A program made the translations under genes and the position numbers. Source: Armatimonadota bacterium (GTDB lineage: Bacteria; Armatimonadota; Armatimonadia; Armatimonadales; Armatimonadaceae). From it: a stretch of DNA of 38,392 nt. Every line of letters starts with the position of its first letter. Positions within the stretch are counted from its first letter, which is position 1. The notes under the pieces were generated by a model that was not told the origin of the DNA, made no database searches, and saw only the letters and a program-made list of their open reading frames with translations. Positions 10,570 through 36,509 of the stretch are shown in pieces. The stretch is from positions 1-38,392 of the forward strand of contig JAYUUO010000138.1 in NCBI GenBank assembly GCA_043754515.1, in the 5' to 3' direction.

Positions 10570-11829
10570 CTAGCGTGGGGTCATCGCGCCGTCACGCACG
10601 AGAGCGAACCCGACGCGCCCGTTATCCGCGACGGCGATGCCGCGGCTCCCGGTGATGGGGGAGGCTTTGGCCTCAGCGACGGCGCGGAAACACCGGAGGC
10701 AAAACTTCTCCCACACGGCGGCGCGTTTGCGCGCGGTGCGTACCTTGTCCGGATTCAGCGACCGGTATTCTCGCTTGCGGATGACGCGGGAATCCCTGTT
10801 GGCGCGGGCGTGGTTACGCGCTTCCTTTCGCCCGCACTCGCGGCACCGGGCATCCAGCCCGAACTGGCCGGCGGCGACGGGCGCGCAGTCGCTCACGGGG
10901 AGGATGAACGCGCAACCCGCGCACTGCTTTTTTCCTCGTTCATATAACCCGGCGTTTTGCTCGCGGTGTTCCCTACCCGGACGTGCGACGTAGCGCGCCG
11001 CGTCCACGTCGGACGCGAGCAGGCATGGCACGGGAAGGTACCCGCGTTGGAAAAACGCCGCGTTTGTTCCGTTCTGCCCGCCCTCCCGCGCGGCGCGTGC
11101 CGAGTCAAGAAAGCCGCTTTTGACTGCGGCGGCTTCTCTGGAACGCTCCGCATTTTTGCGTATCGCCGCGCTCTCGGCGGGCGTGTATCGCGGGACCGAA
11201 GGTTTCGCCCCCGGCGGCACCGCGAACGCGGGCGCGAGCGGTATGCCGTCCCTGATCCATCCACGCAACACCCTCACGTTGACGCCGCGCCGCGCCGCCG
11301 CATCCTCGCAGGTCATCAATATAGGCTCCGTGGAAAAACGCCGCGTTTGTTCCGTAGAATCGGCGAAACAAGTTTCGCCTGTGTTTCGTTCGTCCGTCTT
11401 CGCGATTCGCCCGAGGAAACCGCCACAGACAAAAGCGGCTGAGAGAGACGCAGCGTCTTCTCGATTTGACGAACTGGCGGTTTCCTCGTCTCCCCGCTCC
11501 AACCGAAAGATTCGCCCGAGCGACTCCGTGAGCGTGGCGACATCTACCGCCGTCTTGTCCTGGTTGCCGTGGCGACCGGCGATCATCACCATTAGACGCA
11601 TCGCCCTCAGCGCCCTCACGAGGCCGCCTTCAGGGACGTCGCGTCGCTCCCAGACCGTTGCCCCCCCCTCCGCGCAGAGGCGGACGGTTTTCGTGCCGGT
11701 TTCAGGGTTAGGGATGACCCTGACCTCGGAGCGGCGCACGCCGCTTACATTCAGCATCCGGGGTCTGACGGCCCCCCGCCTGAAACTATGGCCGCCTCGT
11801 GATCGCTTCGGCCTATTTTCCTTCGCCAT
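10570..11829 (-). CDS. HTH plus Zn-ribbon-like protein; the frame continues past an amber stop to 10387
   Basis: MTCEDAAARRGVNVRVLRGWIRDG (HTH_17-like) and KQCAGC...CREC followed by a basic helix; contains repeat islands. Confidence 0.55.
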   Translation of the reverse strand: MAKENRPKRSRGGHSFRRGAVRPRMLNVSGVRRSEVRVIPNPETGTKTVRLCAEGGATVWERRDVPEGGLVRALRAMRLMVMIAGRHGNQDKTAVDVATLTESLGRIFRLERGDEETASSSNREDAASLSAAFVCGGFLGRIAKTDERNTGETCFADSTEQTRRFSTEPILMTCEDAAARRGVNVRVLRGWIRDGIPLAPAFAVPPGAKPSVPRYTPAESAAIRKNAERSREAAAVKSGFLDSARAAREGGQNGTNAAFFQRGYLPVPCLLASDVDAARYVARPGREHREQNAGLYERGKKQCAGCAFILPVSDCAPVAAGQFGLDARCRECGRKEARNHARANRDSRVIRKREYRSLNPDKVRTARKRAAVWEKFCLRCFRAVAEAKASPITGSRGIAVADNGRVGFALVRDGAMTPR

Positions 11830-12020
11830 TATTATTCCTTTTCAGATCAAACTCGACGACTCGGAAAAAACTCCGTTGGAAACGAGTTTCCTCCGAGTTC
11901 TCGGAGGAAGCGACCGCCCTTGGACACACCGCTTGTCGGACTCGCACCGACACTTTGAGGGTGTAGATTCCTCTGCCTCTGCTGTTGGGCTAAAGCGGCT
12001 CATTCGGTATTTCGCCGCGC

Positions 12021-12869
12021 CTATGGGTCCTCATGAGGCGGTGAAGCCGTCACGTGGGAAAACTCGCTCGGCTCGTCGTTTTGGTTATGGGGGCAGAACC
12101 CGGCGCGGGTGTGCCACGCGTTCACATCCTCGGCGCAGATCTGGCAGTGGTGGTTCAGTATCGCCGCGACGTTCACCGCCCCGTAGCCGACCGGGTCGTT
12201 CGCCAGCGTATGCCAGTAGCCCGTCCCGGCGTTCGACGCCGGGACGGTGCGGTAGCGGGCGATCTGCGAGAACGTCCGCTCCGCGTCTTGCCGCTGGTAA
12301 CGCGCCTCGTTATCGGGGGCCTTCCCGGTAGATATCTCGCTCTGTACCTGCGTCCAATAGTGCATCATTCGGAGGCCGGCGAAAGCGTACTGGTCCAGTT
12401 CCGCGAACACCTCGGGCCGTGCCAGTCCTTTGCGGTAGATGGTTACGCACCGTCGCAGGAAGGCGATCAAGGCGGGTTGCGGCTCGGTGCCCGGCGTGGT
12501 ATCCGGCGCGGCGGCGAGCGCGATGCGCCGGTACTCGTCGCGCTCGGCGCGGATGCGCCGATTCTCGGCGGCGAGTTGCTCGATATGACCCAGCAAATCA
12601 TTTTTCGTGGTTGTCATCTTTACTCCTGTATTGACCGAGTGGACGCTCGCGCCGGTGAACCATACGAAGGAGGAACGCTCGCGTTCCTCCTTCGTATGGT
12701 TCACCGGCGCGAGCGTTCCTCCGCGCGTGTTCTCTCTGAAACTGCGGCCGTTCACACAAATCGAGAAGACGCGGCGTCTCTCTTTCGCGGCGATTTTGTG
12801 GTTCAAAACAAACCGGACAGAAGCGTCAACCGTGGGATCACCTGGCCGAACTGGTATGTACCGCGTCAT
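12021..12869 (-). CDS. Hypothetical phage protein (start 12869 or 12617)
   Basis: ATGA overlap at 12869; alternative ATG at 12617 with AGGAG RBS; coiled-coil N-terminal part. Confidence 0.6.
   Translation of the reverse strand: MTRYIPVRPGDPTVDASVRFVLNHKIAAKERRRVFSICVNGRSFRENTRGGTLAPVNHTKEERERSSFVWFTGASVHSVNTGVKMTTTKNDLLGHIEQLAAENRRIRAERDEYRRIALAAAPDTTPGTEPQPALIAFLRRCVTIYRKGLARPEVFAELDQYAFAGLRMMHYWTQVQSEISTGKAPDNEARYQRQDAERTFSQIARYRTVPASNAGTGYWHTLANDPVGYGAVNVAAILNHHCQICAEDVNAWHTRAGFCPHNQNDEPSEFSHVTASPPHEDP
12643..12716. repeat. Perfect palindrome, 36-bp arms with 2-nt centre
   Basis: ACGCTCGCGCCGGTGAACCATACGAAGGAGGAACGC-TC-GCGTTCCTCCTTCGTATGGTTCACCGGCGCGAGCGT. Confidence 0.97.
12744..12801 (+). 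repeat. 58-bp repeat island, copy 1 (exact inverted copy at 34146-34203)
   Basis: GCGGCCGTTCACACAAATCGAGAAGACGCGGCGTCTCTCTTTCGCGGCGATTTTGTGG. Confidence 0.95.
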
Positions 12870-13420
12870 GCCATGATCCTTTCTTTCGCACCGTTTCGGT
12901 ACTCTTCCAGAGCGGCTTCATACGCCACCATGGCCGGGAGGAGCGTGCGCAGCTCCCCCGACCAGTACCGCAGTTCCAGCAGGTGTTGCCGGGCCCTCTG
13001 TTCCATCTCGGGCGACGACTGAGCCGCGTCGGCTTTCTTACGCTCGTACAGTAGCAGGTAGCCGTTCGCGGCATCGCGGATCCGGTCGTTCGGGTTCTCC
13101 GACCCCTCGCCGGACCGAACTGGTCTGCCCGCCCCATCCGCCGCCGCCGTCCGCCAGGGGCGCGGGCGGCACGGGAGGCGCAGGGCGAGCGCGGCGGCGA
13201 TCAGCGTCACGAACGGCTCCAGCGGCTTCGGGATCGGGTGCTGCCTGTCGCTGGGGGCCGACAGGGCGGATCCCTCGACGTACTCCGGTAGGATGAACGT
13301 GACGTAGGAGGGACGCCCGGTGCGTTGACGTGAGTCATCCGCCACCCTCTCGAAACTCGTTCCGGGAGATTCGGAACGCGCCCCGAAAGACACGCCCGTC
13401 TCGAGGTCAAGCGTTTCCAC
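12866..13420 (-). CDS. Hypothetical phage protein
   Basis: GTG at 13420 with GGAGGT RBS, overlapping the end of the upstream gene; its stop overlaps the next ATG. Confidence 0.6.
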   Translation of the reverse strand: METLDLETGVSFGARSESPGTSFERVADDSRQRTGRPSYVTFILPEYVEGSALSAPSDRQHPIPKPLEPFVTLIAAALALRLPCRPRPWRTAAADGAGRPVRSGEGSENPNDRIRDAANGYLLLYERKKADAAQSSPEMEQRARQHLLELRYWSGELRTLLPAMVAYEAALEEYRNGAKERIMA

Positions 13421-14741
13421 TGGCGGTACCTCCGGGGGATCTGGCCGAACCGATTTTCCGCCGGATCGCGGCGATTCCCGAAGCGGCCTCGGAGAAATCG
13501 CCGCGATCCGTTCCGGGAAAAACGCGCGGCGCGTTCGCGACATCGGCAGAAACAAGTTCTCGGCAAAAGCCGCTTTTGCCTGAATGCCTGTGCCACAAAA
13601 CTGCGGCAGTTTGTGTGTCTGCGGCATTTTCGCTTGTTCCGGGAAAAACGCGCGGCGCGTTTGTTCCGGGTAGCTCGTCCCACGGGACCGGCGCGCCCCC
13701 GTTCTTTTTCCGCCAGAACCACCGCGCCTGGTCGCGCACCACGTCCGACAATGGGTCGGGGGCATGCCCGGTGCCGTTCCTCACTGCGTCGAAGGCGAGG
13801 CGCAACAGATCCCGCGCCTCGCCCTCCGGGACGCCGGGGAGCCAGGCAGCGGGCACGGGCAGCTTAGGCGCGGCGGGTTTGTCCGCCGCCCGGACCGCCC
13901 GGTTCGTCGCGACCGCCTCGCGCTCCGCCGAGCGTTCGGCGCGGCCCCGCTCGGCGAGCCACCAGCCCGGTAGTTTCCACTCCCCTGACTTGACCCGGCG
14001 GGCTATGTTCAGCGCGTATCCGGCGCAGTCGTCCTCCGATACGGAGAGATTCCCCTTCTCGATGCGCCGTAGCGTAACGCCGAACGCGTCCTCGAGTGTC
14101 GCCACCCCGAGAGAGTCCACGAGTTTCGCGATAGATCTGCCCCACACCCCGCATTTGCGCATAGTAGCAACAACACCCCAGGCCTCCGGCGGTAGAGCAA
14201 CTTCGGACACGTCGGCATCTCGTTTTTCGCCGGTTTGCCGTAATTGTTTCTCCGATTTATCCACGTTAGTAGTAGAATGGGATGACGTACCCCGTGACAA
14301 TAGGGGTGACACGGCGGGCGAAGATTGAGACGGCGCGGGGGCACCCGGAGGCACCGCGTGTTGCCTGGGTCTACGCCTTGCCGGTATGTTTTCGAGCATC
14401 GGTTTGGTGGGCGGGCCGGCGGGCACGGGCACGTGCGACTCCCAGCCCGGTATCTGGGACGAGTGGACGCGTGGGTAGATCGTCGTGATGCCGCCCGGTT
14501 GGCGGACGCGTTCGATGTACCCCAGGCGCTCCAGCTCCTCCTCTAGCCGGTACACGTGACGTTTCGTGATGCCGCCGAGCCACTCGGCGAACGTCCCGAC
14601 CTTGATCATGACCCAGCCGATCACCTCGCCGAGTTTGTTCTTCTTTTCGGCGTAGCGGCAGATCTTGCGGAGGAGCTTGATCGCCGTGCCCGACGGGATC
14701 TCGCCCGTATTTATGTCGAGCGACAACTGGGCTTGTTGCAT
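13407..14741 (-). CDS. Putative phage replication initiator (N-terminal winged HTH)
   Basis: IKVGTFAEWLGGITKRHVYRLEEELERLGYIERVRQPG wHTH, then a Pro/Ser-rich linker and C-terminal domain, the usual layout of phage Rep proteins. Confidence 0.6.
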   Translation of the reverse strand: MQQAQLSLDINTGEIPSGTAIKLLRKICRYAEKKNKLGEVIGWVMIKVGTFAEWLGGITKRHVYRLEEELERLGYIERVRQPGGITTIYPRVHSSQIPGWESHVPVPAGPPTKPMLENIPARRRPRQHAVPPGAPAPSQSSPAVSPLLSRGTSSHSTTNVDKSEKQLRQTGEKRDADVSEVALPPEAWGVVATMRKCGVWGRSIAKLVDSLGVATLEDAFGVTLRRIEKGNLSVSEDDCAGYALNIARRVKSGEWKLPGWWLAERGRAERSAEREAVATNRAVRAADKPAAPKLPVPAAWLPGVPEGEARDLLRLAFDAVRNGTGHAPDPLSDVVRDQARWFWRKKNGGAPVPWDELPGTNAPRVFPGTSENAADTQTAAVLWHRHSGKSGFCRELVSADVANAPRVFPGTDRGDFSEAASGIAAIRRKIGSARSPGGTASGNA

Positions 14742-14852
14742 CAGAGTAGTTCGCCTTTCGACGGGGCGGCGAAACAAGGCGTTCCCGCCCGAGACGACGA
14801 CCCAGCGGGTGATAGCGAATCTCCGCCGGGTGGGTCGGCAGACGACATATGA

Positions 14853-15251: not shown

Positions 15252-15261
15252 ACGGTATGTG

Positions 15262-15981
15262 TCACCGGCGGTAGCCTCCGACTTTATGTTTGTCCGAGAG
15301 AAGCCGCTTCATTGCGTCGCCGGGTATACCCGCGTAGCGCGACACCAGTTCGCCGCTCCGTAGGCTCCACCGCAAGCCGTGACCGGGGCATGTGACGCAC
15401 CCGTCCGCGTCCACGGACAGGGACGCCAAAGGAAAGCCGCGGTGCGGGCAGACCGGGTTCGAAATGTCCGCGATGCGCTTGCCGTCACAGAGACGTTCGC
15501 ACCGTAGCGTGACCGGAACAAACGCGCCACGCGTTTTTCCACGCTGGTAAAAATTGGGGAACTGCTCACAGCCTATAGGGAACAAACGCGCCGCGCGTTT
15601 TTCAGGGAACGTGGGCATCGGGCGAACACACCGGCGCAAAAGAACACGCACGACGGAAAAAACTTCGCTTCGTTTCGTCTTCACACTAGTCAACGCTTCT
15701 ATTTGCCCCATGCGCCGCTCCCAACCGGGCGTGTTCGGCGCGACGCCGAAATGCTCGATCACGAGCCGCCTTGATACGAACCGGAAATCGGGGTGGTAGT
15801 GTTGCTCCGAAACGCCGAGTTCGGCGTCCGTGTGCGCCGCGCCGATAATCGGAAGCCAGAACGTCTTGTCGGTGCCCTTCCGGTGCCGGAGGAGACACCG
15901 CACGCGGTACTCTTTGCCGACCACGGGCGGGGCGGCGAGCGTGTCTACGAAAGGTGCTTTCTTGTACGGTTTATGCGGCAT
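15262..15981 (-). CDS. Rieske [2Fe-2S]-motif protein
   Basis: C-terminal CPHRG...VTCPGHGLRWSLRSG has both Rieske ligand boxes. Confidence 0.75.
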   Translation of the reverse strand: MPHKPYKKAPFVDTLAAPPVVGKEYRVRCLLRHRKGTDKTFWLPIIGAAHTDAELGVSEQHYHPDFRFVSRRLVIEHFGVAPNTPGWERRMGQIEALTSVKTKRSEVFSVVRVLLRRCVRPMPTFPEKRAARLFPIGCEQFPNFYQRGKTRGAFVPVTLRCERLCDGKRIADISNPVCPHRGFPLASLSVDADGCVTCPGHGLRWSLRSGELVSRYAGIPGDAMKRLLSDKHKVGGYRR

Positions 15982-17383: not shown

Positions 17384-17700
17384 GGCGTCGCCTTCCGGAG
17401 CCGCTCGGCGCGGACACTCTCTCGTTTTCGTTCCGTGATCGGAGCCTTGACGCGTTTCACGATGACCTTCCAGTCGCCGAGCGCGATGCCGTCCTTATGC
17501 ATCCCGTCCAGCCGGACAGTCGTGTTCGTGCCGCCCATCTCATCGGAAAGACGCACTAGGGCGAGCATAGCGGCGTACGCCACGCCCACGCTGTCCGAAG
17601 TGGCACCCGCGAACGCGCTACATGAAGCGCGGACCGTGCGCCCCAGCTCCAGATCCGAATCCGGGAAAGACGCCGCGTTTGTTCCGAGATCGTGTTTCAT
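17380..17700 (-). CDS. Hypothetical phage protein
   Basis: Start and stop overlap neighbouring genes. Confidence 0.6.
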   Translation of the reverse strand: MKHDLGTNAASFPDSDLELGRTVRASCSAFAGATSDSVGVAYAAMLALVRLSDEMGGTNTTVRLDGMHKDGIALGDWKVIVKRVKAPITERKRESVRAERLRKATP

Positions 17701-18050
17701 CAATTCAGCACCCTCCTGCTCGCGGTTCTGACAGCGTCAGACAGCCGTCTAAAGCCTCCGCGCGCACACATCGCCTCCCGCCGGATCTCCTCCAAACGGG
17801 CCGGGTCGGCGGCAATCCGCGCGACTTCGTTGGCGGACAGCACGATCGCCGCCGCCACGGTACGGGCTGTCTCCGGCGATAGCAGCACCGTGACGCAGAG
17901 GCCCCGCGAGTCGAAAACCGTTGCGGTTTGTCGAGAGTCGGTCAGGGACAACCCGACCTCCACCATCCCGTCTTCCCGGACGCCGACGCCGAGCTTGACC
18001 AGACTCTGTTCCGTTTCCTCAGGCAAAACTTGTTTTGCCGACTTAGCCAT
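17700..18050 (-). CDS. Hypothetical phage protein
   Basis: GGAGG RBS; coupled to neighbours. Confidence 0.6.
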   Translation of the reverse strand: MAKSAKQVLPEETEQSLVKLGVGVREDGMVEVGLSLTDSRQTATVFDSRGLCVTVLLSPETARTVAAAIVLSANEVARIAADPARLEEIRREAMCARGGFRRLSDAVRTASRRVLN

Positions 18051-19260
18051 GACCAGCCTCCTTCATTCCATTCGTCGGGAACTCGTCCCATTGCTTTCCA
18101 TTGAGGAGCCGCCCCGCGACCGACTTCCCGACACGCGTCAGAAAGTTGAAGGGGACTGGCGAGTCGTCGCCGTTGCCGGGTTCCCGGTCCGCGACGCGCC
18201 CGTCGGGATAGCAGTAGCGCAGATGGCGCGGCTCGATGGCGAATCGTTTAACCGATCCGGAGGACAGGATGGCTTCGTAATCGGTCATCGGGAGCCACTC
18301 GCCCCATTGTTTGTAGAAAAACGGCACGCCAGCCGCGACGCACTGGTCGCGAATGGATCGAACCCAGTCCGGGTGCATCGGCCGTGCGCCGGGACCCGAC
18401 TCGCCGCCCGCTATCACCCACGAAAGTTGCGGGTTCGGGATAAGCGTTCTGCCGTCATTCGGGCACACTTCGCGCGCCGTGGACGTGTCCAGCCCTACCG
18501 AACCGTCGCACGCCCGTAACAGGCGTTTGTGCAACTTGTATGGGCACGCCGGGCAACGCCACTCCCCATCGGGGGACAACCACCGCGTCAAATCAACCGC
18601 CCCCAGGAGCGGCTCGCACGACAAGAAGCGCACCGCGGCGGGAACCCGCACCAGGTGGGGTATCCGCTCGTCCGCGGCTTTCTGATCCTCGACCGACGTC
18701 CCGATCCAGACGTTCGGCGGGAACCCGTCCCGCCAAGGCTCCGGCACCATGCCAGAGAAACCGCCCGAACAGTCAAAAGCCGCTTTTGACGATCCGGCAA
18801 AACTCGTTTTGCCTGTTGCGGTTTTCTCGCCCATGATGTTCTGGAGGCGTTTGGTGAGCAATAACCAGTCGAGCCCCGGCGTGGCTTCGATGAGCGGGAA
18901 CAGCCGGGCGCGGGACGCCGTGACGACCGCGTAGGCGTCCGCGTCCTGGCACGTGTCGCTCCCCTCGAACACGTCCGCGAGGGACGCGCAGAAAATGCGG
19001 TGCCTCTCCCCCGCCGCCAGGGCCGTACGGTTCCAAGCCACCGGCGAACGCCAATACGCCTCCGAAGCCGGTGCGCGGGTGCCTAAAGGACCCCATACGC
19101 CGAGAGTTTTCGGGTTACGCTTCGATAGCGTTTCGGCGTAGCAGTTGCGGCACCCCTCGCTGATTTTGCAGCACCCCCGGTGCGGGTTGAATGTGTATCC
19201 GGGCATCGCCGTCCCGTCCGGTCGGACGCTCGAAGTCCATTCGATCACGGTCAAAGCCAT
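18043..19260 (-). CDS. Phage Gp37/Gp68 family (DUF5131) protein
   Basis: IEWT, TFNPHRGCCKISEGCRNCYAE, RIFCASLADVFE, LLLTKR, NVWIGTSVEDQ, RFLSCEPLLG, WVIAGGESGPGARPMHPDW, PFFYKQWGEW. Confidence 0.93.
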   Translation of the reverse strand: MALTVIEWTSSVRPDGTAMPGYTFNPHRGCCKISEGCRNCYAETLSKRNPKTLGVWGPLGTRAPASEAYWRSPVAWNRTALAAGERHRIFCASLADVFEGSDTCQDADAYAVVTASRARLFPLIEATPGLDWLLLTKRLQNIMGEKTATGKTSFAGSSKAAFDCSGGFSGMVPEPWRDGFPPNVWIGTSVEDQKAADERIPHLVRVPAAVRFLSCEPLLGAVDLTRWLSPDGEWRCPACPYKLHKRLLRACDGSVGLDTSTAREVCPNDGRTLIPNPQLSWVIAGGESGPGARPMHPDWVRSIRDQCVAAGVPFFYKQWGEWLPMTDYEAILSSGSVKRFAIEPRHLRYCYPDGRVADREPGNGDDSPVPFNFLTRVGKSVAGRLLNGKQWDEFPTNGMKEAGHG

Positions 19261-20046: not shown

Positions 20047-20476
20047 CGCTGTCTTCTTTTTGGGTGCAGAATCGGCGGAATCCGGGGTACGTGCCGGTTC
20101 GCATCTCGCGGACGATGGCGTCGAGGTACTGCTCCGCGCCGAGGGTAACCGATCCGGTTTCCGGCTCATCGCAAACCGCCGCGGGGAAAAACGCGGCATC
20201 TCTCGAAACGAGTTTCGAGATTGTTTCGGTTTGTCGAGAGTTGATACTCGCGCGGCTCCAAGACTGACCGGCAAGCGGTCGGTAAGCGTCCCCCTCGTTC
20301 CCTCCGCCGAACCCGATTGCTACCGCGACGCAGGGCAGGGAATCGTGGTTGCCGAACGCCGCGTAGTTGCCGGAGAGCAGGACGCGCAATTCCCTGAGCT
20401 GGCACTCCATATCGGTGATGATCGCGCGGACGAACTCGGCGTCGCCGGGCGTGAGTGTCGCGGTTCCGGGTATCAT
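20033..20476 (-). CDS. Hypothetical phage protein
   Basis: ATGA overlap with the upstream HAD gene. Confidence 0.55.
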   Translation of the reverse strand: MIPGTATLTPGDAEFVRAIITDMECQLRELRVLLSGNYAAFGNHDSLPCVAVAIGFGGGNEGDAYRPLAGQSWSRASINSRQTETISKLVSRDAAFFPAAVCDEPETGSVTLGAEQYLDAIVREMRTGTYPGFRRFCTQKEDSDGDE

Positions 20477-22047: not shown

Positions 22048-22457
22048 CAATTGGTGTATCCCTCTCCGGAATCGTCAAAACGAGTTTTGACTGGACGCGG
22101 TGCTATAGAAAAATCGAATGTGAAGGGGGTGACGTCCCGTCCGGCGTCGAATTCGCCCGCGAATCGGTCCGCGCTCTCGGGCAGGACGATCACATCTTCC
22201 CTCCTGGCGCGTCCCCCTTCTGGGAAAAACGGGCCAGAGAAAACGCCGCGTTTCTCTCCGCCCGTTTGTTCCGAGCCGATCAGGAAAGCTATCGCCCGTT
22301 CCCGGTTGTCGTAAGCGACGCCCCAGGCCTGCCCCGTCGCTTCGCGCAGGGCGAGCGCGACGGCGCAGTGATTGCGCAAGAAAATCGCTTCGCGCGATTT
22401 CTCTGGGTGGCCGCGCATGCCCTGCCTGATGTGCGCGGCGGTGACGGTGACGATCAT
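22047..22457 (-). CDS. Conserved hypothetical phage protein carrying in-frame repeat inserts
   Basis: MIVTVTAAHIRQG...CAVALAL...LPESADRFAGEFDAGRDVTPFTF. Confidence 0.65.
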   Translation of the reverse strand: MIVTVTAAHIRQGMRGHPEKSREAIFLRNHCAVALALREATGQAWGVAYDNRERAIAFLIGSEQTGGEKRGVFSGPFFPEGGRARREDVIVLPESADRFAGEFDAGRDVTPFTFDFSIAPRPVKTRFDDSGEGYTN

Positions 22458-24580: not shown

Positions 24581-24636
24581 ATATTACAGGAAAACTGTAG
24601 ATAAATCAATTTTTTATATTTACAGTTTTCCTGTAA
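24581..24636. promoter_or_regulatory. Immunity-switch operators and cro promoter
   Basis: TTACAGGAAAACTGTAG (24584-24600) and TTACAGTTTTCCTGTAA (24620-24636); minus-strand TTGATT-17 nt-TAATAT 6 nt before the cro ATG. Confidence 0.8.
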
Positions 24637-26445: not shown

Positions 26446-26890
26446 CCCTTCTTCCGGTGCGACGCGCCTGCTCTATCTCGCGGCCAGCGTGCTCTTCCTG
26501 GCCGGAACAATCGCCGCGATTTCCCCCGTCGCGCCTTGCGCGGCACAAAGTGCAAGAGGGATGCACGGCCAAGTCTCGTGTTCACGAGCACCGAAAAACG
26601 CGCTGTCACGCCTGGATGAGCGGGCAAAGCGCAAGATCTACTGGGATCGCATCGTGGCCTGTCATAGGGCGGCGGTGGAGGCGCGGAAGAAATACCCCTT
26701 GCTCCCCGGCATGAGCAAGGCGCAGGTAATGAAGATGTCCGGGGCCTCGAACGAAATAGAATAGGCCCTCCAGGTCAAATATTCGCGCCCGATTCGCGCT
26801 CGGTACCACCTGACCGAGGTCGATCTCGACAGGCTGAGCATTATAGGCGATAAGAAAAACTATCCGAACCCGTCCTTGGGATACTACTGA
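26435..26890 (+). pseudogene. Exported protein interrupted by in-frame TAG (26762-26764)
   Basis: Signal peptide; frame continues ALQVKYSRPIRARYHLTEVDLDRLSIIGDKKNYPNP to TGA 26890. Confidence 0.55.
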
Positions 26891-28360: not shown

Positions 28361-28858
28361 ATGCAAATACCACGATATGAAGAGAGCAATCTAACGGATA
28401 GCGAACGCGATCTGCTTGCGCTCGTGGTGGAGCGGTACGCCGCGCCGCTGACGAACGAGGAACGCGACACGCTCACGGTAGAAGTGGATAAATTCGCCTC
28501 CATCGTCGCGGGGCGGGCCTACATTTATGGGCATTCGGACAAATCGCGGCGATTTTCTAGCGAAGACAGACGAGAGAAGCCGCCGCGACAGGCGAATCGA
28601 GAAGACGCGGCACGAGAAGACGAGGCGTCTCTCTCATCTTCTCAATTTGCCGAACCGGAAGGCGAACCGGCGAACATCACCCCTGGCGACTTCTCCGGGC
28701 TACTCGCACGCGTCCTGGGGAAGTACGCGCCGTCGCTCCCGGAGCCCGACCACGCCGCCCTACGGGGGGCACTCGACGAGCTGTACTGCGTCGTTGCGGC
28801 GGGGGCCTACACCCACGGGAGAGAAGAGTGGACGGATCAGCCGGTGACGATCCCATGA
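28361..28858 (+). CDS. Hypothetical protein with internal duplication
   Basis: LLALVVERYA...IVAGRAYIYG versus LLARVLGKYA...VVAAGAYTHG. Confidence 0.6.
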   Translation: MQIPRYEESNLTDSERDLLALVVERYAAPLTNEERDTLTVEVDKFASIVAGRAYIYGHSDKSRRFSSEDRREKPPRQANREDAAREDEASLSSSQFAEPEGEPANITPGDFSGLLARVLGKYAPSLPEPDHAALRGALDELYCVVAAGAYTHGREEWTDQPVTIP

Positions 28859-29634
28859 CGCGCCCGAAAACCCTACCAGCGTTGCTCGCGTGCCTCCTCG
28901 GAAAAAGCGCGGCTTTGTTCCTGCTCGCCCTGGGGCTACTCGTCCCTTCGCTCCCGGCCCGCGCACCGCAGTATGATATGAACGCGCCTATCCTACCGGA
29001 TCACACGAAGACGCCCGGCGACGTGCTCGCCGTGACCACGAAGGACATCTGCACCCCCGGCTACTCGAAGAAGGTGCGCAACGTCCCGCAGGCGGTCAAG
29101 GAGGCGGTGTACAGGGCGTACGGGATCACCCGCCGCGAGAAGGGCGAGTACGAGGTGGATCACCTGGTCTCGCTGGAGCTGGGCGGCTCGAACTCGGCGC
29201 GGAACCTGTGGCCGGAGTCCTACAAAACGACGCCCTGGAATGCGCATGTAAAGGACCGGCTCGAAAACACCTACCACGCCGACGTTTGCAAGCGCGGGGC
29301 AGATCTGCGGACGGTCCAGACGAAGATCGCGGGCGACTGGATCGCGGCGTACAAGGAGCGGTTTAAAACCGATAAGCCGATCCCGCCGAAGGCGAGGAGA
29401 CCGAAGACCGTGCCCTCCGTCGGTGTCAGTACGGGTGCCGGGGCCGGTCACCGAACGCGCCGAACCACTACCGGCGCGGCGGCGGTCGGCGGCATCAAAG
29501 TCTGGGTGAACCTCAACACGGGGGTTTATCACTATCCCGGTCAGCGGTGGTACCAGAACACGGCGAACGGGATGCTGATGAGCGAAAAAGACGCCCAGTC
29601 GCACGGGTACCGCCCGACGACGAACGGCCAGTAA
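28855..29634 (+). CDS. Exported HNH-like nuclease-domain protein
   Basis: YEVDHLVSLELGGSNSARNLWPE; N-terminal hydrophobic signal; C-terminal VWVNLNTGVYH...MSEKDA..GYRP module. Confidence 0.75.
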   Translation: MTRPKTLPALLACLLGKSAALFLLALGLLVPSLPARAPQYDMNAPILPDHTKTPGDVLAVTTKDICTPGYSKKVRNVPQAVKEAVYRAYGITRREKGEYEVDHLVSLELGGSNSARNLWPESYKTTPWNAHVKDRLENTYHADVCKRGADLRTVQTKIAGDWIAAYKERFKTDKPIPPKARRPKTVPSVGVSTGAGAGHRTRRTTTGAAAVGGIKVWVNLNTGVYHYPGQRWYQNTANGMLMSEKDAQSHGYRPTTNGQ

Positions 29635-30266: not shown

Positions 30267-30338
30267 GCCTATAAACTAAATGCTTACACGACAAGCCGGA
30301 AAGCGGCGCGGGAATCATTCCCGCGTGCCCGCCGTGTT

Positions 30339-30857
30339 TTATCGCACCGTGAATGTCACGCCGACCTTGCCGATCCCCTCCGCTAGCCGGGTGCCCTTCG
30401 TACCGACACCCGCCCGGTTCGAGCACCGCACCGGCGACCCCTCCTGGATGAACCGCGCGGCTTCGGCGAAGCATTCCGCGTAGTCGGGGCTGGTTCGCCG
30501 CCGGTCACTACTGTCGTACTCGAATGTAAGTACGCGCCCCGATTCCGTCACCACCGGGAGCGGTAGCTCGCCCCCGCCGACGTAGATGCGCAGGGCATAC
30601 CCGATGGCCGCGCTCGCCCCCACCTGCTCGGCGGCGGTCAATGTCCTATCGAACGTCGCGCGGATGGCCGTGAAATCGGTCACGTCCGGCTCGCGGAACT
30701 CAGCTGCTTGTGTCGTGTCCGGCAGGGGAAGCGTCACCCCAAAAAATCGGCCCGCAGTCATGTTCAGCAGGAGGAGCGTGTCCGCGCTCGGGGCGGCGGT
30801 GAAGACGCGGGTCGCCGCGTCGAACGCTATTTTCGGATCACCGTTTGAAGCGTCCAT
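30339..30857 (-). CDS. Hypothetical protein
   Basis: Coherent 172-aa ORF in a small leftward operon. Confidence 0.6.
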   Translation of the reverse strand: MDASNGDPKIAFDAATRVFTAAPSADTLLLLNMTAGRFFGVTLPLPDTTQAAEFREPDVTDFTAIRATFDRTLTAAEQVGASAAIGYALRIYVGGGELPLPVVTESGRVLTFEYDSSDRRRTSPDYAECFAEAARFIQEGSPVRCSNRAGVGTKGTRLAEGIGKVGVTFTVR

Positions 30858-30858
30858 G

Positions 30859-31155: not shown

Positions 31156-31443
31156 GTGATAAGTTCCTTCAAGAACCCGGACACGGAAGCGGTGTTCGCC
31201 GGGAGGTGTTCCCGGAAATACCCGGCCGACATTCAGAGCACGGCGCGGCGCAAACTCATCCAACTCGGCGACGCGGGGAACGTGAACGACATGCGGATCC
31301 CGCCCGGCAACAGGATGGAAAAGTTATACGGGGATAGGAAGGGCCAATGGAGCGTGCGCGTGAACGACCAATGGAGGATCTGCTTCCGGTGGGAGACCGG
31401 CGAAGACAACCCGAGCGAAGTCGAGATCACCGATTACCATTGA
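31156..31443 (+). CDS. higB: HigB (RelE/ParE family) toxin
   Basis: MISSFKN, ARRKLIQL, DMRIPPGNRMEKL.GDRKGQWSVRVNDQWRICFRW, VEITDYH. Confidence 0.95.
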   Translation: MISSFKNPDTEAVFAGRCSRKYPADIQSTARRKLIQLGDAGNVNDMRIPPGNRMEKLYGDRKGQWSVRVNDQWRICFRWETGEDNPSEVEITDYH

Positions 31444-31488
31444 AACGGAACAAAACAGAGTTTTTTCCGCAGACCAGAAAGAAAACCA

Positions 31489-32013
31489 ATGACACACAAT
31501 GAGGTCGCCTCCCATTTTATTGACGCCGTGCAGGGCGGGTCTGCGGGTCCCCTGCCGAACACCGTCCGGCTCGACGCCCGCGCGTGGGCGCGGCGTCTCG
31601 CCGACACCCCGCCAGGGGAGCGTCTCGCGCCCGTCCACCCCGGCGAAGTCCTCGACGAGGATTTCCTCAAACCGGGCCGCCTGACCAAATACCGTCTCGC
31701 CGCCGACACCGGGCTTACCCCGACGCACGTCGGACAGATCGTGGCCGGGGCGCGGGGCGTCACTGCGCCGGTCGCGCTCCGTCTCGCGGCGTACTTCGGT
31801 AATTCGCCTGAGTTCTGGATGCGTCTCCAGATCGGCTACGACCTGGAAACGGCGGCGCGGGAGATGGCGGACGAACTGGAGGCCCTGCCCCGCGTGGAAT
31901 GGGACGCGGCTCCGGGGTCGCCGGATTCACCGCGTCCGAAGCGACTGTACCGGCGTCGTGCCTCGCGGCAGGGACTCGTCAACTCAGAGAAATCGCCGGG
32001 GCGATTTTCTTGA
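31489..32013 (+). CDS. higA: HigA antitoxin with N- and C-terminal extensions
   Basis: PVHPGEVLDEDFLKP...YRLAAD...VTAPVALRLAAYFGNSPEFWMRLQIGYDL. Confidence 0.93.
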   Translation: MTHNEVASHFIDAVQGGSAGPLPNTVRLDARAWARRLADTPPGERLAPVHPGEVLDEDFLKPGRLTKYRLAADTGLTPTHVGQIVAGARGVTAPVALRLAAYFGNSPEFWMRLQIGYDLETAAREMADELEALPRVEWDAAPGSPDSPRPKRLYRRRASRQGLVNSEKSPGRFS

Positions 32014-32029
32014 GTGCCGAACCAGGGCT

Positions 32030-32551
32030 TTATTCTTTCCCCCTCGGCCCGAGTACTTCCCACTCCAGGAGCAGGTGCTGCGCCGCGAGCGACTCCTCGA
32101 AGCCGACCCCCACGCCGTCGGCGTCTATCCAGCCCCGCTCCCTGTCCACCCGCCGGGCGAGGGCCCGCGCGGCCTCCAGTGCGGCGAGCAACTCGCGGGT
32201 GGCGGGCGTGTCCAGGAACTCCAGCGGCACCGCGTCGCGCTGGATCGGCTTTCCCGGCCGCGCCGCCCCGCACGCGAGCAGGAGTGTCAGCGCGTTGTTC
32301 GCCGCTTCGTATGCCGCCTGGGCGGAACCCTCCGCGAGATCGAGATTTCGCGCGAGTGCCTCCGTGGAAAAATGCTCCGCCCGTTCCGGGGATCCCGGAA
32401 GCGGTGGAAACGCGTTTCCACCTGGGTCGCCGCGCTGGATTCTGTTCCTTCGCCAATGCCCCGCGCTCCGCATGTGTGTGATAGCCTGCGTCGCCTGCCG
32501 TCGCGCGTGCTCGACCGAGACCGTCACCCTGTTCATGTTCTTACTGTCCAT
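32030..32551 (-). CDS. Hypothetical helical protein
   Basis: ATG overlaps the end of the upstream HTH gene. Confidence 0.55.
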   Translation of the reverse strand: MDSKNMNRVTVSVEHARRQATQAITHMRSAGHWRRNRIQRGDPGGNAFPPLPGSPERAEHFSTEALARNLDLAEGSAQAAYEAANNALTLLLACGAARPGKPIQRDAVPLEFLDTPATRELLAALEAARALARRVDRERGWIDADGVGVGFEESLAAQHLLLEWEVLGPRGKE

Positions 32552-32777
32552 TCGCTTCACAATCTTCCTCTCGTTTCTTCGGCTTAGGTCCCGGCCTTTT
32601 CGATACGTCCCAGGCGTCCACGTCGGCGGGCAGGAGCAGGAGTAGCCTCGCCCCCGGCACCGACAAGGCGGGCAGATGCCCGCGCCGGATCGAGCTGTAC
32701 ACGGTCTGCATCGGCACCCCGCGCCGCGCCGCCGCCTCGCTCGCCACCAGATACCAAACGCCGTCCCATTGAACCAT
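32541..32777 (-). CDS. Excisionase-like (HTH_17) DNA-binding protein
   Basis: YLVASEAAARRGVPMQTVYSSIRRGHLPA...DVDAW...RPGPKP. Confidence 0.75.
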   Translation of the reverse strand: MVQWDGVWYLVASEAAARRGVPMQTVYSSIRRGHLPALSVPGARLLLLLPADVDAWDVSKRPGPKPKKREEDCEANGQ

Positions 32778-32782
32778 GCGCC

Positions 32783-32866
32783 ATTGTACACCCCGCGCGG
32801 GATAATTGCATACATTGTTTGCAAAAGCCTTTCCGGTTCGGGTATATTGAATATAGTGTATGCAAT
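32783..32866. promoter_or_regulatory. Divergent promoters with inverted operator pair
   Basis: ATTGCATACATT (32805-32816) and AGTGTATGCAAT (32855-32866); TTGCAA-18 nt-TATATT on plus; ATGCAA-17 nt-TACAAT on minus. Confidence 0.6.
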
Positions 32867-32922
32867 GTAAGGGGAGAACGGCTGGAGCCGAACCGGAACC
32901 CCCCGCGAAGGAAACACAGACC

Positions 32923-33309
32923 ATGCAAGCTACAACCCCGACAGTAGAGACATACACCCGCCAAACGGCGAATAAAATCGCGTATCACGGCGCGATGAAG
33001 ATAAAGCGTGCCGGCAGCGGCTACCGCATCGACAAGCAGAGCAAGGGATACTACTTAGTAACCACGCCCGACGGGTTCAACCTGTATGGTGTAACCTTGT
33101 TTGAGGACGGCAAGCACGGCTCGTGCGGGTGTGCCTTCTGGAACGCGGCGAAGGAACACGAGATCTGCAAGCACGTGATGGCGTGTCGGTGGCTCGCGGA
33201 AGACGACCGGGATGCGGATCAAGCGGAAGCCGATCTCGACGCGGCGGGTGACCTGCGCGACCTGCGAATGGCGGCAGAAGCAGACCGGGCGTATAGCCTG
33301 GCGCGATAG
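32923..33309 (+). CDS. SWIM zinc-finger protein
   Basis: SCGCAFW...ICKHVMAC. Confidence 0.78.
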   Translation: MQATTPTVETYTRQTANKIAYHGAMKIKRAGSGYRIDKQSKGYYLVTTPDGFNLYGVTLFEDGKHGSCGCAFWNAAKEHEICKHVMACRWLAEDDRDADQAEADLDAAGDLRDLRMAAEADRAYSLAR

Positions 33310-33363
33310 GAACCGACCGGGGGAGGGTTCACGCTCTCCCCTGATTATAACGAAGGAAACGAC

Positions 33364-33972
33364 ATGAAAAACGATACCATTTTCGAGTCTGACGACGACG
33401 ACATCTCCGATCTTCCCGCCGACTTCCTCGCGGCGGCTAACGAAGGCATGGCACAGGCGCGGGCCGAGATCGGGCTGGGGACGTCCCCCGCGTTCCCCAT
33501 CCCCTTCGCCGTCGATTCCGAAGCCCGCGCGGAGTGGCTTCTACGAAAGCTCGCGACCATAGACGCCGAGGCCGAACGCATGAAGGCGAACACCTGCGAG
33601 CGGCTACGGGAACTGCAAACCGACCGCGACAGGTTACTCCACCGGTTCGGGGAGCAGTTCATGGCGTGGGCACGCGGCGAAGCAGCCACACGGCGACGCA
33701 AGACGGTCACGCTCGCCAACGGCGCGGTAACGTTCCGCGCTACCCCAGCCCGCTTCGCCATCACGAACGAAGACGCCGCCATCGAAGCCGCCCGCACCGC
33801 CTGCCCTGCCGCGCTAGCCGTGGCGACAGTGACGCGGCTCGACCGGAACGCCCTGCTGGGCTACGTGGAAGCGACGGGGGAGGTGCTACCCGGCGTGGAA
33901 TGGATCCCGGCAGGCGAGTCGGTCTCCATCAAACCCGGTGGAGCGAAAAAGGGAGAGGAGGCCCCCGGCTAA
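33364..33972 (+). CDS. gam: Mu Gam-like host-nuclease inhibitor / DNA end-binding protein
   Basis: FAVDSEARAEWLLRKL, coiled coil, KTVTLANGAVTFR, LDRNAL, GEVLPGVE. Confidence 0.75.
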   Translation: MKNDTIFESDDDDISDLPADFLAAANEGMAQARAEIGLGTSPAFPIPFAVDSEARAEWLLRKLATIDAEAERMKANTCERLRELQTDRDRLLHRFGEQFMAWARGEAATRRRKTVTLANGAVTFRATPARFAITNEDAAIEAARTACPAALAVATVTRLDRNALLGYVEATGEVLPGVEWIPAGESVSIKPGGAKKGEEAPG

Positions 33973-33979
33973 ATAAAAA

Positions 33980-34012
33980 CACCCCGCCCCGTGTTAAGCA
34001 CGGGGCGGGGTG
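33980..34012. terminator. GC-rich hairpin between converging gam and lysin genes
   Basis: CACCCCGCCCCGTG-TTAAG-CACGGGGCGGGGTG with an A-run on the left (U-tract on minus). Confidence 0.75.
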
Positions 34013-34145
34013 GAAAAGGAGTTATGCACACTTTATTTCGCCAATGAGAGGACTATCCCTTGCGGGCGGAAACGACCCCACCCTGCTGTTTCCTCGTCTA
34101 GCCGGTGGCGACCTCGCGCTTCTCAGAGAAATCGCTTCACACAAT

Positions 34146-34203
34146 CCACAAAATCGCCGCGAAAGAGAGACGCCGCGTCTTCTCGATTTGTGTGAACGGC
34201 CGC
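34146..34203 (-). repeat. 58-bp repeat island, copy 2
   Basis: Exact reverse complement of 12744-12801. Confidence 0.95.
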
Positions 34204-34256
34204 GTTTAATCTGCACAGGCGAAACGGAACAAACGCCGCGATTGTCAGAGTGTGGA

Positions 34257-34832
34257 TTAGGCGATTTTCTTGAGTGCCGCGATCCGGTTCAGCCACCCCG
34301 CGAGGAACTTGTGGTTTGTTTTCCCCGGAGCCCCGATCTCGTTGTAGAACGCGACGCGACGCGCGTTCAGCCCGTCCGCCAGCGTGTCATGGGCGAGCGT
34401 GAACCGCTTCGCCGCCGCGAGCGTCGCCGGGCCGAACACCCCGTCGAGCGACGTCCCTAGGATCGCCTGGAGCCAGCGCACCGCACGCGACGTTCCTACG
34501 TTAACCGCCGCGTCGAACAGCGACAGCGCGAGGCCGTACCCCAGGTCGTCGCAGTGGCACGGGTCCCAGTAGTGGTCGTGGTATATGTCCGCCACTTCGA
34601 CAGCCGTCATGTGGCGCAGGGGTTGCAAGGGGAGCGCGTGCTCTTTGCGCCAGGCGTCGTAATCGAAGTGCGTGACCCCCACCTCGGTCTCGCCGCCGGA
34701 ATCGCCCGCGACTAGTTCCCAGTACATGCCCTCCTGCGGGAGCACGAAGGCCAGCGCGCGGCGGAAGTTCGCCGACTTGCCGGACGCGGCGGCGATGATG
34801 TCCGCCTCCGTCATGTTAATTTTCCGTACCAT
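34257..34832 (-). CDS. GH108 endolysin with peptidoglycan-binding C-terminus
   Basis: EG...DSGGETEVGVT, IYHDHYW, FDAAVNVG, LQAILG...DGVFGPATL, FLAGWLNR. Confidence 0.92.
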   Translation of the reverse strand: MVRKINMTEADIIAAASGKSANFRRALAFVLPQEGMYWELVAGDSGGETEVGVTHFDYDAWRKEHALPLQPLRHMTAVEVADIYHDHYWDPCHCDDLGYGLALSLFDAAVNVGTSRAVRWLQAILGTSLDGVFGPATLAAAKRFTLAHDTLADGLNARRVAFYNEIGAPGKTNHKFLAGWLNRIAALKKIA

Positions 34833-35461
34833 AATCCGTACTCCTTATTTCCTCGACAAATCGCGGCGATTTTCGATCTCTGCCAGAACGGGTCGGCGGG
34901 ATGTTCGTGGGTGAGCCGGGTCGTGACGCGCCCGGCCGGGAGCAGCAGATCCTCCCGGCCCAGGTACCAGAGGATCTCCTCCCAGGCCGCGACCCACCCC
35001 CAGCAGACGACGGCGCGGTAGCCGCTCCCGGCCAGTCGCGCGAGCCAGACGCGCTGCTCGTCCCCGACATGCCCCTCCCGGTAACGCTTGAGCTCGATCC
35101 TGAGTCCGGCGAAGCCGCGGGCGGGCACGTCGAGCGACATGTCCGGCACCCCGGCTTTCAGCCCCTGCCGCGAAAGGGCCGCGCCCGTCGCTTTCGCCCG
35201 GTGCCCTCCGTTCGGGACGTGGTACAGGCTCCGCAGCTCCGGCACAGCCGCCTCGTGTAAGGCGGCTGTGCGGAAGAGCGTCTCCTGGTGCCTATCCTCG
35301 GTCGGGTCAGGCTCCCGGCACGGTGTCAAGCGTAGCGGCGGCCGGCGGGGCGATCGCGGGAGTGTCGGGAATCGCGGCGATTCTCCGATCTGCGGCGGAT
35401 CCGTTGGAAACAGTGTCGGTTCGGGAGAAACAAGTTTCTCCCTGGCTTGCGAACGATCCAT
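34811..35461 (-). CDS. VRR-NUC domain nuclease (start uncertain)
   Basis: TEDRHQ, YHVPNGG, GLKAGVPDM, IELKR, EQRVWLARL..GYRAVVC. Confidence 0.85.
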   Translation of the reverse strand: MDRSQAREKLVSPEPTLFPTDPPQIGESPRFPTLPRSPRRPPLRLTPCREPDPTEDRHQETLFRTAALHEAAVPELRSLYHVPNGGHRAKATGAALSRQGLKAGVPDMSLDVPARGFAGLRIELKRYREGHVGDEQRVWLARLAGSGYRAVVCWGWVAAWEEILWYLGREDLLLPAGRVTTRLTHEHPADPFWQRSKIAAICRGNKEYGLWYGKLT

Positions 35462-35714
35462 CGGCGTTGCTCCAGGTTTTCTTCTTCGGGTTGCGCACGT
35501 AGCAGATCGCGCCTATCAGGGCACCTAGTCCGGCGATATACTGGGATTTACCGCCGACGCCGAGCTGGGCACCAAGCGCGAGGCCGCTCCCGTATGCGGC
35601 ACCGACCGCGGTCGTGAACTCGACCCAGCGGAAGTTGTCGAACCAGCGTCCCAGGGTGGAACTCGTCCGCGCGGCGGCGGATTTGGCGAGTCGGGTGAAT
35701 AATTCATCCATCAA
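35307..35714 (-). CDS. Small membrane protein, holin candidate
   Basis: Two Gly/Ala-rich hydrophobic segments followed by basic RNPKKK; lies upstream of the lysin. Confidence 0.45.
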   Translation of the reverse strand: MMDELFTRLAKSAAARTSSTLGRWFDNFRWVEFTTAVGAAYGSGLALGAQLGVGGKSQYIAGLGALIGAICYVRNPKKKTWSNADGSFASQGETCFSRTDTVSNGSAADRRIAAIPDTPAIAPPAAATLDTVPGA

Positions 35715-35731
35715 TAAGGTAACCTTCTTTC

Positions 35732-36040
35732 ATGTGGATACAAACAGAGGTTCGCGGGGCGATGAGGGACGTGGAAAGCGCGGAATCGTTCCTGAACATC
35801 GCCCTGGCGAGGGAGTTGCTCGTCGAGAAACAAACCGACGGCAACTGGTATGTGATCGCCGACTTCGGTTGCCCAAATGGGGACGACTGGCAACTCCCGA
35901 CAAACTGCGGCAGTTTTCGACGGTTCGTGCGGGCGTACGAGTCGAAGCGCGAGGCGGAGAACCACCGAGACCGACTCACGAAGGCACTAAACCGGGTCGC
36001 CCGCGCGTTCACTTCGCCGAGCGAGAAAGCAGTGTTTTGA
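35732..36040 (+). CDS. Hypothetical protein inserted antisense in the lysis region
   Basis: Coherent 102-aa ORF filling the gap between two minus-strand genes. Confidence 0.45.
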   Translation: MWIQTEVRGAMRDVESAESFLNIALARELLVEKQTDGNWYVIADFGCPNGDDWQLPTNCGSFRRFVRAYESKREAENHRDRLTKALNRVARAFTSPSEKAVF

Positions 36041-36410
36041 TGTCGCCGCGCTGCTCTTTGAGGCTGTCCTTGATCTCAGCGATGTCGGCGTTCTGCTGAC
36101 GCACCTGCGCCTCGACCACCGACAGACGCTCGCCCCGGTTTTCTTTCGCGTTCTGGAACGTCGCGATCTGCGATGCCTCGGTCGCTATGTCACGGGTCTG
36201 GGCGATCTGCCCGAAGTACATCTGGATCAGGGCCCAGATCACGCACAGCGCGAGCGGGATCAGGAACTTCAGGACGTCCCAGCGGGTGGAGTGTTGCTCC
36301 CAGAACGGTTCGGGGGAAAAACGCGGCGTTTGTTCCGGGCTAGCGGTAGTCGGGGGGGGAATGCCCGTTTGTGCCTGGGCGGCTCCCCCCTGCGTGTTCA
36401 TGACGGACAT
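36009..36410 (-). CDS. Single-TM coiled-coil protein (holin/XhlA-like candidate)
   Basis: FLIPLALCVIWALIQMYF followed by RLSVVEAQV...IAEIKDSLKE...IKTLL. Confidence 0.55.
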   Translation of the reverse strand: MSVMNTQGGAAQAQTGIPPPTTASPEQTPRFSPEPFWEQHSTRWDVLKFLIPLALCVIWALIQMYFGQIAQTRDIATEASQIATFQNAKENRGERLSVVEAQVRQQNADIAEIKDSLKEQRGDIKTLLSRSAK

Positions 36411-36509
36411 GGGTGTGTCCTTTCTTTCGCGATAACTTAGTTTTGACGATTCCACGGGACACGAGAGACGCAGCGTCTCTCTCAAACGTGCGCTCGGCGA
36501 AACGGGCCG

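Follow-up and report, generated by a model that had tools for sequence, protein, structure and literature searches.

How repeats shorter than 35 nucleotides (nt) move in bacteria is an open question. The small dispersed repeats (SDRs) of Nostoc described by Elhai et al. 2008 reportedly measure 21-27 nt, fold into hairpins with compensated changes and nest within one another, and their mover is said not to be known. In the portions of the SDR literature available to us, SDR5 inserts precisely into HIP1, a short target, and SDRs have been reported, among HIP1-rich genomes, only for Nostocaceae (PMC5861425, PMC4390886, PMC3116915). Here we describe a family of 22-31-nt hairpins, which we call units, from a 38,392-nt stretch of Armatimonadota DNA (the window) that is the entire contig JAYUUO010000138.1 (C138) of assembly GCA_043754515.1 (G000; 5.13 Mb in 313 contigs, 92.7% complete); C-numbers denote contigs of this assembly, and G001 and G002 are other genomes compared. 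Like the SDRs as reported, these units form hairpins with compensatory changes and insert into one another. The family is real and mobile in origin: its members make discrete insertions, nest, share a conserved fold, carry a weak target signature, re-use a site and are concentrated in mobile DNA. On balance, we favor the reading that the units are non-autonomous mobile hairpins, which would be cut and rejoined as single strands by an enzyme acting in trans, most likely of the HUH/Y1 type.

Units Share a Bulged Hairpin Fold

A preliminary description of the window had listed four types of short palindrome (A to D) at 29 sites and proposed either a periodic code for DNA bending or protein binding, or a self-spreading miniature element. 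The motifs are present at all 29 sites, and their claimed enrichment in the phage region holds: a grammar-light hairpin scan of positions 10001-36500 finds 30 hairpins, compared with a mean of 0.77 (maximum 4) in 60 local triplet shuffles. The four types are real motifs, but they prove to be variants of two related 22-31-nt bulged hairpins. Types A, B, and D, together with two types absent from that description, have one common fold, consisting of an outer stem whose last base is A, a single unpaired C or G located 6-8 bp from the loop, AAA or AGA, a GC-rich stem of 3-6 bp, a loop of 1-4 nt, and the complement. In type C, a perfect stem pairs an A-tract with a T-tract and leaves one base unpaired near its foot, and a 30-nt class (D2) carries both bulges.

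With sequence only as the anchor, 32 of 84 genomic sites pair at four or more of five inner positions, compared with 0/45 and 10/471 in two controls, and 15 of the 16 perfectly inner-paired sites also pair outside the bulge. Double-sided changes occur in 8 of 13 pairs across 30 aligned copies, a number that none of 500 shuffles reaches, although these copies were pre-selected for inner pairing; two unselected outer pairs show four and three double changes. We catalogued 139 units in the genome and 7 in the reversed genome. They comprise 94 distinct sequences; the C type has 11 different cores, the A and T tracts do not vary, and a search of Rfam gave no match. Folding of whole islands is mixed, with z scores of -4.1, -4.7, and -3.0 for three islands and -1.9, -1.7, -0.1, and +0.15 for four others, indicating that the folded entity is the unit and not the island.

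These properties bear directly on the proposed code, in which the units would serve as binding or bending sites for gyrase or for a protein of the nucleoid, of partition, or of packaging. Such a role would accord with the invariance of both tracts and with the density of units, which is high in several prophages, but the expected helical phasing of AA/TT failed to appear: autocorrelation across the six islands named in that description gives z of 0.6 (lag 10) and -0.6 (lag 11), the spectral z at 10.5 bp is -0.2, and there is no 10-11 bp period, with weak signals at ~8, 15-17, and 32-33 bp instead. Nor do the islands tile the region regularly, their spacing ranging from 108 to 6207 bp (coefficient of variation 1.2, in a list that omits the degenerate unit at 26506). 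The distance from A-tract to T-tract is variable (mostly 4-13 bp), stem changes are compensated, cores and sequences are diverse, and units insert into and interrupt one another. Moreover, the same units sit in remnants of insertion sequences (IS), where a code for packaging or segregation would be meaningless. We therefore regard a code of this kind as extremely improbable.

Discrete Insertion, Nesting, and Target Sites

Filled and empty paralogues at 16 sites, picked from 78 + 19 gap alignments that were mostly redundant copies (a few unrelated gaps being set aside), show clean gaps of 22-31 nt, and ~50 nt for one stack. The gaps measure +23, +22, and +22 in a host MITE (miniature inverted-repeat transposable element); +22, +30, and +30 in IS630; +30 and +24 in RHS genes; +30, +30, and +24 in Rpn-like genes; +27 and ~+26 in IS605 ends; +10 aa in TnpA; and ~+50 in C97 relative to window positions 30318-30345. 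A tRNA-like gene in a tRNA cluster of G001 (L096/L140) holds a 31-nt unit (+31), and its homologue on C219 is empty. The preliminary description had envisaged insertion boundaries with target duplications; the boundaries are discrete, but inspection by eye found a duplication of at least 2 nt at none of the 16 sites, and 0-2 junction bases usually differ from the empty allele. Copies of the ~200-bp MITE display stepwise states with none, one, two (nested and reversed), or three C units.

The target signature of the 30-nt class is weak. Of 47 de-duplicated sites, 35 have C at the fifth base upstream (p 5e-11 against 28%) and 40 have a purine at the third, and in three pairs checked by eye both bases belong to the target. 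At one and the same codon, a pair of IS605 TnpA paralogues in G002 hold different units that face opposite ways. One of these proteins is identical to an empty homologue at 132 of 134 positions, and 109 of 110 scored TnpA homologues have a short hinge without insert; different units at one codon point to two insertions, or a replacement, at one site. In-frame units are also found in unrelated ORFs encoding DUF5131, ParB, RHS, and Rpn-like proteins, as well as TnpA. Units within genes lie in both orientations (19 sense, 12 antisense); inserts of 24, 27, and 30 nt are in frame and leave ORFs open, and those of 22, 23, 29, and 31 nt would shift the frame.

Islands are units nested in units. On the phage contigs, 23 of 64 units lie within 150 bp of another, compared with 8.2 in simulations. 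Filled and empty pairs, nesting, and the copying of whole composites all back the earlier suggestion of a self-spreading miniature element. If phage and IS copies underwent template switching and short-patch recombination, with no dedicated enzyme, this could account for the clustering, for composites of 58-70 nt copied between unrelated places, for loops that are inverted at shared sites, and for palindromes that have been perfected and extended. However, the inserts are clean, of fixed length, and lie in targets without homology to the unit; the bulge is kept, though template switching should erase it; and a target signature exists. An origin without a mover thus seems very improbable. For mobile hairpins, loop inversion and the occasional loss of a bulge would probably be later template-switch events.

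Units Are Concentrated in Mobile DNA

Unit density is highest on contigs that are pieces of prophages or mobile elements, among which three different portal types are represented; these contigs hold 64 units in 208 kb (31 per 100 kb). Since these 14 phage contigs were first chosen by motif density and annotated afterwards, we ran an independent test on 26 IS loci defined by Pfam matches to transposase, TnpB, or TnpA, with split matches merged. A unit lies within 400 bp of 11 of the 26, compared with a mean of 0.18 (maximum 3) in 2,000 random draws, and the density of units in these loci is 58 per 100 kb. The idea that the family is restricted to phage does not survive, as it also occurs in IS remnants, the host MITE, and RHS and Rpn-like genes. 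Further units are located in IS701, IS21, and IS630 remnants, and ~20 of the 56 units outside phage and MITE lie without a nameable mobile context. The MITE is present in more than 30 copies in G000, mostly between genes. Its copies (e.g., C33:30430-30640) also contain several other small hairpin modules, whose stems are compensated and which have no relation to the A/T-tract family.

Elsewhere the units are scarce: there are 2 in 172 kb of ordinary spacers; the 3.51 Mb of long non-phage genes contain 3, of which an IS3 transposase accounts for 2; and all non-phage DNA outside long genes, IS included, has 3.7 per 100 kb. Within phage contigs, intergenic DNA contains 27 units in 25 kb (108 per 100 kb) and genes contain 37 in 145 kb (26 per 100 kb); of these 37, 20 fall within 45 aa of a gene end, compared with 33% expected. 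Terminase, portal, capsid, and tube genes are free of units.

This pattern raises the alternative that insertion has no preference and that prophages and IS remnants are simply where mobile hairpins survive selection. Unit-free structural phage genes, clustering of units near gene ends, and the fragmentary state of most unit-bearing IS loci agree with survival, and a unit-free cas operon would fit recent arrival. Against it stand the scarcity of units in ordinary spacers and in non-phage DNA outside long genes relative to IS loci and phage spacers, the residence of most MITE copies between genes, and the two hits at one codon of intact TnpA ORFs. We consider survival without any targeting unlikely as the full explanation.

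The Family Appears Confined to One Genus

Within the genomes searched, the family appears to be confined to one Armatimonadota genus. Copies of the A pattern number 11 in G000 and 0 in 40 relatives, and those of the C pattern 37 in G000 and 0 in 300 genomes of the phylum. A covariance model gives 66 matches in G000 (some sites being matched on both strands), 12, 3, and 3 matches in three congeners, single weak matches in 3 of 37 other genomes, and one longer match in 149 phylum genomes. Across 185,579 species genomes, the 30-nt (D2) pattern identifies 3 loci in 2 Armatimonadota metagenome-assembled genomes and no cyanobacterial match; a first, stricter pattern gave 0. Three exact patterns had 0 matches among IMG/VR viral contigs. 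All 6 metagenome matches (5 distinct sites) lie in transposase-like ORFs, named at three sites by BLAST to Pfam-labelled loci and at two by eye, and most of their flanks are 95-100% identical to G000.

The IS families that carry units are numerous and unrelated, and they come from three genomes as well as from near-identical metagenome strains. This breadth, the metagenome matches, the re-used site, and the units whose length would shift a reading frame could mean that a host or phage system stamps mobile DNA with a hairpin at cut sites in transposase or rival phage genes, as a defence or a repair scar. Many inserts are in frame, however, with ORFs left open, nesting and composite copying fit selfish spread, and no candidate gene was found. 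None of 100 CRISPR spacers spans a unit site, empty or filled, or matches a whole unit; one spacer matches part of a unit, over 18 nt. Stamping of this kind is, in our judgment, distinctly unlikely.

A stronger form of the mobile-hairpin reading, which we hold doubtful but not far-fetched, has an undescribed enzyme for single-strand insertion moving a hairpin of 22-31 nt, with active aim at prophage genes and transposase genes from many unrelated families and repeated use of particular sites. If true, the units would be among the smallest parasites of parasites known, or the product of a host system for marking and disabling mobile DNA. Should the bias reflect real targeting, it would be a layer of conflict among mobile elements that we did not find described in the open-access literature, where we found no account of a family of tiny hairpins whose members are concentrated in transposase genes and prophages.

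A Candidate Mechanism and the Search for a Mover

As described in the portions of the cited papers available to us, Y1/HUH systems process a bulged hairpin as a single strand, have a short 5' target motif, and require the bulge for activity (PMC8266576, PMC6006769). The units match these descriptions in their short bulged hairpin, lack of duplication, and short 5' target motif, from which we infer single-strand insertion. An HUH/Y1-type enzyme would be supplied in trans, inserting units mostly into phage or plasmid DNA while it is single-stranded. IS elements and the MITE may then bring units onto the chromosome, and selection would prune them from the cores of essential genes.

Several points weigh against this mechanism, beyond the pre-selection of copies and contigs mentioned above. 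No mover was found in G000, and none of its four Y1 matches is flanked by units; these include one gene with a frameshift, one that is truncated, and one that is intact and divergent, without surrounding units. Y1 genes are present in 23 of 24 relatives, most of which have no units. The flank tables contain no GT[AG]G guide at the unit foot. Altered junction bases do not fit a clean peel-and-paste transposition. Resident IS605 ends were considered as the source of the units and rejected, as they look different, are unrelated, and are themselves targets. Strict units are absent from four tyrosine-integrase contigs (C122, C160, C51, C60) and from the CRISPR-targeted C260, and the mobile-DNA bias could be partly or wholly due to selection. 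Finally, four sequencing runs show no filled/empty polymorphism at unit sites, so current activity is not demonstrated.

The intact divergent Y1/HUH-type gene (C71:14139-14624) lies right after a trpB-like gene, has no flanking hairpins, and is possibly domesticated. PHROGs annotation of 66 phage proteins named no HUH enzyme.

Reverse transcription is another route, one that has been proposed for SDRs and for retron-derived repeats. Two reverse transcriptases are encoded in G000, typed from motifs and neighbours as DGR-like (diversity-generating retroelement; C197:29307-30928, at a contig end with an Avd-like neighbour) and retron-like (C263:17469-18881), and compensated stems would also suit RNA. 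Neither gene has a unit nearby, units in genes occur in both orientations, and there is no Rfam match, making copying through RNA very unlikely.

For the mobile-hairpin reading, the well-defined ends, natural filled/empty pairs, mutable bulge rule, target signature, and re-used site make the question of how such short repeats move directly testable. As a tool, an enzyme able to insert 22-31 nt with no duplication would likewise be of interest.

Units and Nested Stacks in the Window

The strict catalogue places 24 units in the window, none of them below position 9800 (Table 1). The near-absence from the cas genes noted at the outset is borne out, as the grammar-light scan finds 2 hairpins there compared with 0.6 (maximum 3) in shuffles.

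Table 1. Units, stacks, and context features of the window. Strand is + or -, with a point where none is assigned; remarks give the source of a call or its relatives.
Feature	Positions	Strand	Remarks
CRISPR array end and cas genes	1-9707	.	Context of window
cas operon, type I-E layout	218-9707	.	Named from gene order and repeat; zero catalogued units
A-type unit, S-bulge hairpin, 22-nt core	11049-11070	-	In 10570-11829 helix-turn-helix (HTH)/Zn-finger ORF
Island: A 11332-11353, C 11361-11381, degenerate units, B 11441-11462	11324-11490	.	Partly shared with C143:8442-8653
Degenerate C unit, intergenic	11869-11899	.	Hairpin scan
Composite, B nested in D-type unit	12739-12801	-	58 nt (12744-12801) = exact inverted copy of 34146-34203
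Largest island: C, E, long-A, D units	13350-13675	.	C-terminal extension of replication-initiator ORF
Long A unit	15515-15540	+	Strict catalogue
Long A unit	15580-15603	+	Strict catalogue
A variant near gene start	17665-17686	-	Motif check
E-type S-bulge unit, new	17911-17934	-	Strict catalogue
C unit near gene start	18019-18041	+	Strict catalogue
Stack: outer S-bulge unit holding two C units	18750-18832	.	In frame, variable loop of DUF5131/Gp37 protein; fold z -4.1
Three-layer stack, E > A/D > C	20165-20242	.	70 nt at 96% in C143; parts in C87, C97, C214; fold z -4.7
C unit	22073-22093	-	Close to unit carried by host MITE
A-type unit nested in degenerate A unit	22222-22273	.	Strict catalogue
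30-nt-class (D2) unit	22376-22406	-	D2 class
Degenerate D unit, intergenic	26503-26534	+	Motif check
Island, D and B units	28535-28660	.	Surrounding stretch 303 nt here, 81 nt in C101 paralogue
A variant	28900-28921	.	Identical in C101 paralogue
Empty site	30318-30345	.	C97 paralogue holds ~50-nt stack (C nested in D)
A-like unit between higB and higA	31446-31469	+	Hairpin scan
D2 unit = 3' end and stop codon of higA ORF	31984-32013	+	D2 class
C unit	32402-32424	-	Same type in IS3 remnants on C251, C54
Stack: D2 unit split by ~125 nt of nested D, B, A, C units; intergenic	34122-34271	.	
D unit, 3' tail of VRR-NUC ORF	34853-34876	+	Strict catalogue
Degenerate D unit and C unit (35422-35444)	35365-35444	.	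Strict catalogue
E-type unit, new	35898-35919	+	Strict catalogue
A unit	36315-36336	-	Strict catalogue
B unit, intergenic	36460-36486	+	Motif check

The palindromes had been placed largely inside coding sequence, and 24 of the 29 sites do lie in genes called with our own codon-model gene finder. There is no coding preference, however, as the density on phage contigs is ~4-fold higher between genes. The peptides quoted as recurring exist, but each exact peptide occurs once, and only short cores (GTNA, EQT.R) recur; for annotation, such peptides are passengers and not protein motifs. Some islands that appear to be coding are read-through tails: the 13350-13675 island carries the replication protein (13407-14741) beyond the stop point of two homologues, which end just before it. 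The loop of DUF5131 varies in length from 10 to 65 aa (17-19 in 35 of 104 proteins, 44 in the window), and this natural variability makes the stack at that position weak evidence by itself. The 303-nt stretch around the 28535-28660 island also holds an internal duplication, and the unit at 28900-28921, being identical in the C101 paralogue, is older than that split.

Genomic Setting of the Window

Beyond the cas genes, the window is prophage-like, with genes for DUF5131, Gam, lysin, VRR-NUC, HigB/HigA, and a replication initiator, for which no viral relatives were found. Assembly contigs of four public runs from one study match window pieces of 2.3-7.8 kb with 0 differences; as these runs may be the source data, a late assembly error is excluded, but the confirmation is not independent. 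The ORF at 10570-11829, which holds the densest run of units, combines an N-terminal HTH with a C-terminal endonuclease-VII-like zinc region in which the catalytic part is not evident; an Atlas search with it gave HTH leads only, all below 0.9. Three inverted repeats lie outside the unit family: a perfect hairpin with 36-bp arms (12643-12716), an AT-rich inverted repeat in a divergent control region (24584-24636), and a terminator-like hairpin (33980-34012).

A 97-bp element with 32-bp terminal inverted repeats, flanked by TA, is present in three near-identical copies (window 9834-9930, C143:1336-1431, C164:9928-10024), and the same 29-bp CRISPR repeat is found at C143:161-1321 and window 1-136. 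Provided that C138 and C143 join at the array, the CRISPR array and cas genes would lie between the window copy and the C143 copy, which suggests a cas cassette inserted into one phage of ~75 kb; contig-end overlaps show no join of C138 to C143. One C143 spacer is identical to prophage contig C97 at 30 of 31 aligned bases, pointing to an apparent phage-borne CRISPR-Cas aimed at a rival phage. Spacers of the host array on C61 match C172, C87, and C260, which are resident mobile contigs, and also a second place on C61, which amounts to self-targeting. Contig ends that overlap by 97-98 bases link C99, C284, and C154 into a mobile element with a serine recombinase and Mu-like portal, and C69 and C87 into one with an NrS-1-type polymerase and integrase.

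Comparison with Known Systems

Serine-recombinase crossover sites, which the units resemble, have a fixed central dinucleotide and fixed half-site spacing, unlike the 11 cores and variable spacing seen here. The units also differ from phased A-tract curved DNA, having no A-tract period at 10-11 bp, and, unlike ends derived from IS200/IS605, show no similarity to the subterminal hairpins of resident IS605 elements. As MITEs are described in the portions of sources available, at 70-300 bp with terminal inverted repeats and target duplication, the units are too short and lack a duplication of 2 nt or more. They resemble the ultra-short palindromes of organelles (yeast GC clusters and double-hairpin elements) as partly described sources present them, being tiny mobile inserts with no coding capacity, but those are mitochondrial and were compared by description.

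Closer parallels are found among repetitive extragenic palindromes (REPs) and Rickettsia palindromic elements (RPEs), again as far as the excerpts of the sources go. With REP/BIME/REPIN systems and their TnpA-REP (RAYT), the units have in common a similar size, mosaic clusters, lineage restriction, and occasional in-frame insertion, and with group 2 REPs an imperfect hairpin with a conserved bulge (PMC8266576, PMC6006769, PMC3733652). Unlike REPs in these excerpts, they have no GT[AG]G 0-2 nt 5' of the stem and no CGTC tag, and are not mainly extragenic in the core chromosome; no unit-flanked tnpA-REP gene was found, and nesting takes the place of paired doublets. As in RPEs, palindromic inserts are translated in frame in unrelated proteins (PMC10969869, PMC3184786, PMC3733652). 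This part of the Rickettsia parallel drawn in the preliminary description stands, but the units measure 22-31 nt and not ~150 nt (~105-150 bp for RPEs in the excerpts), avoid housekeeping genes where RPEs occupy metabolic and housekeeping ones, and are read in several frames and on both strands.

The closest known kind, ahead of REPs and RPEs, appears to be the cyanobacterial SDR mini-repeats, compared by description and not by sequence. Insert sizes are similar, although the 30-31-nt class exceeds the 21-27 nt reported for SDRs. What sets the present family apart from SDRs is its occurrence in Armatimonadota, its A-tract/T-tract stem with a fixed bulge, its degenerate target, and its strong bias toward prophage and IS genes.

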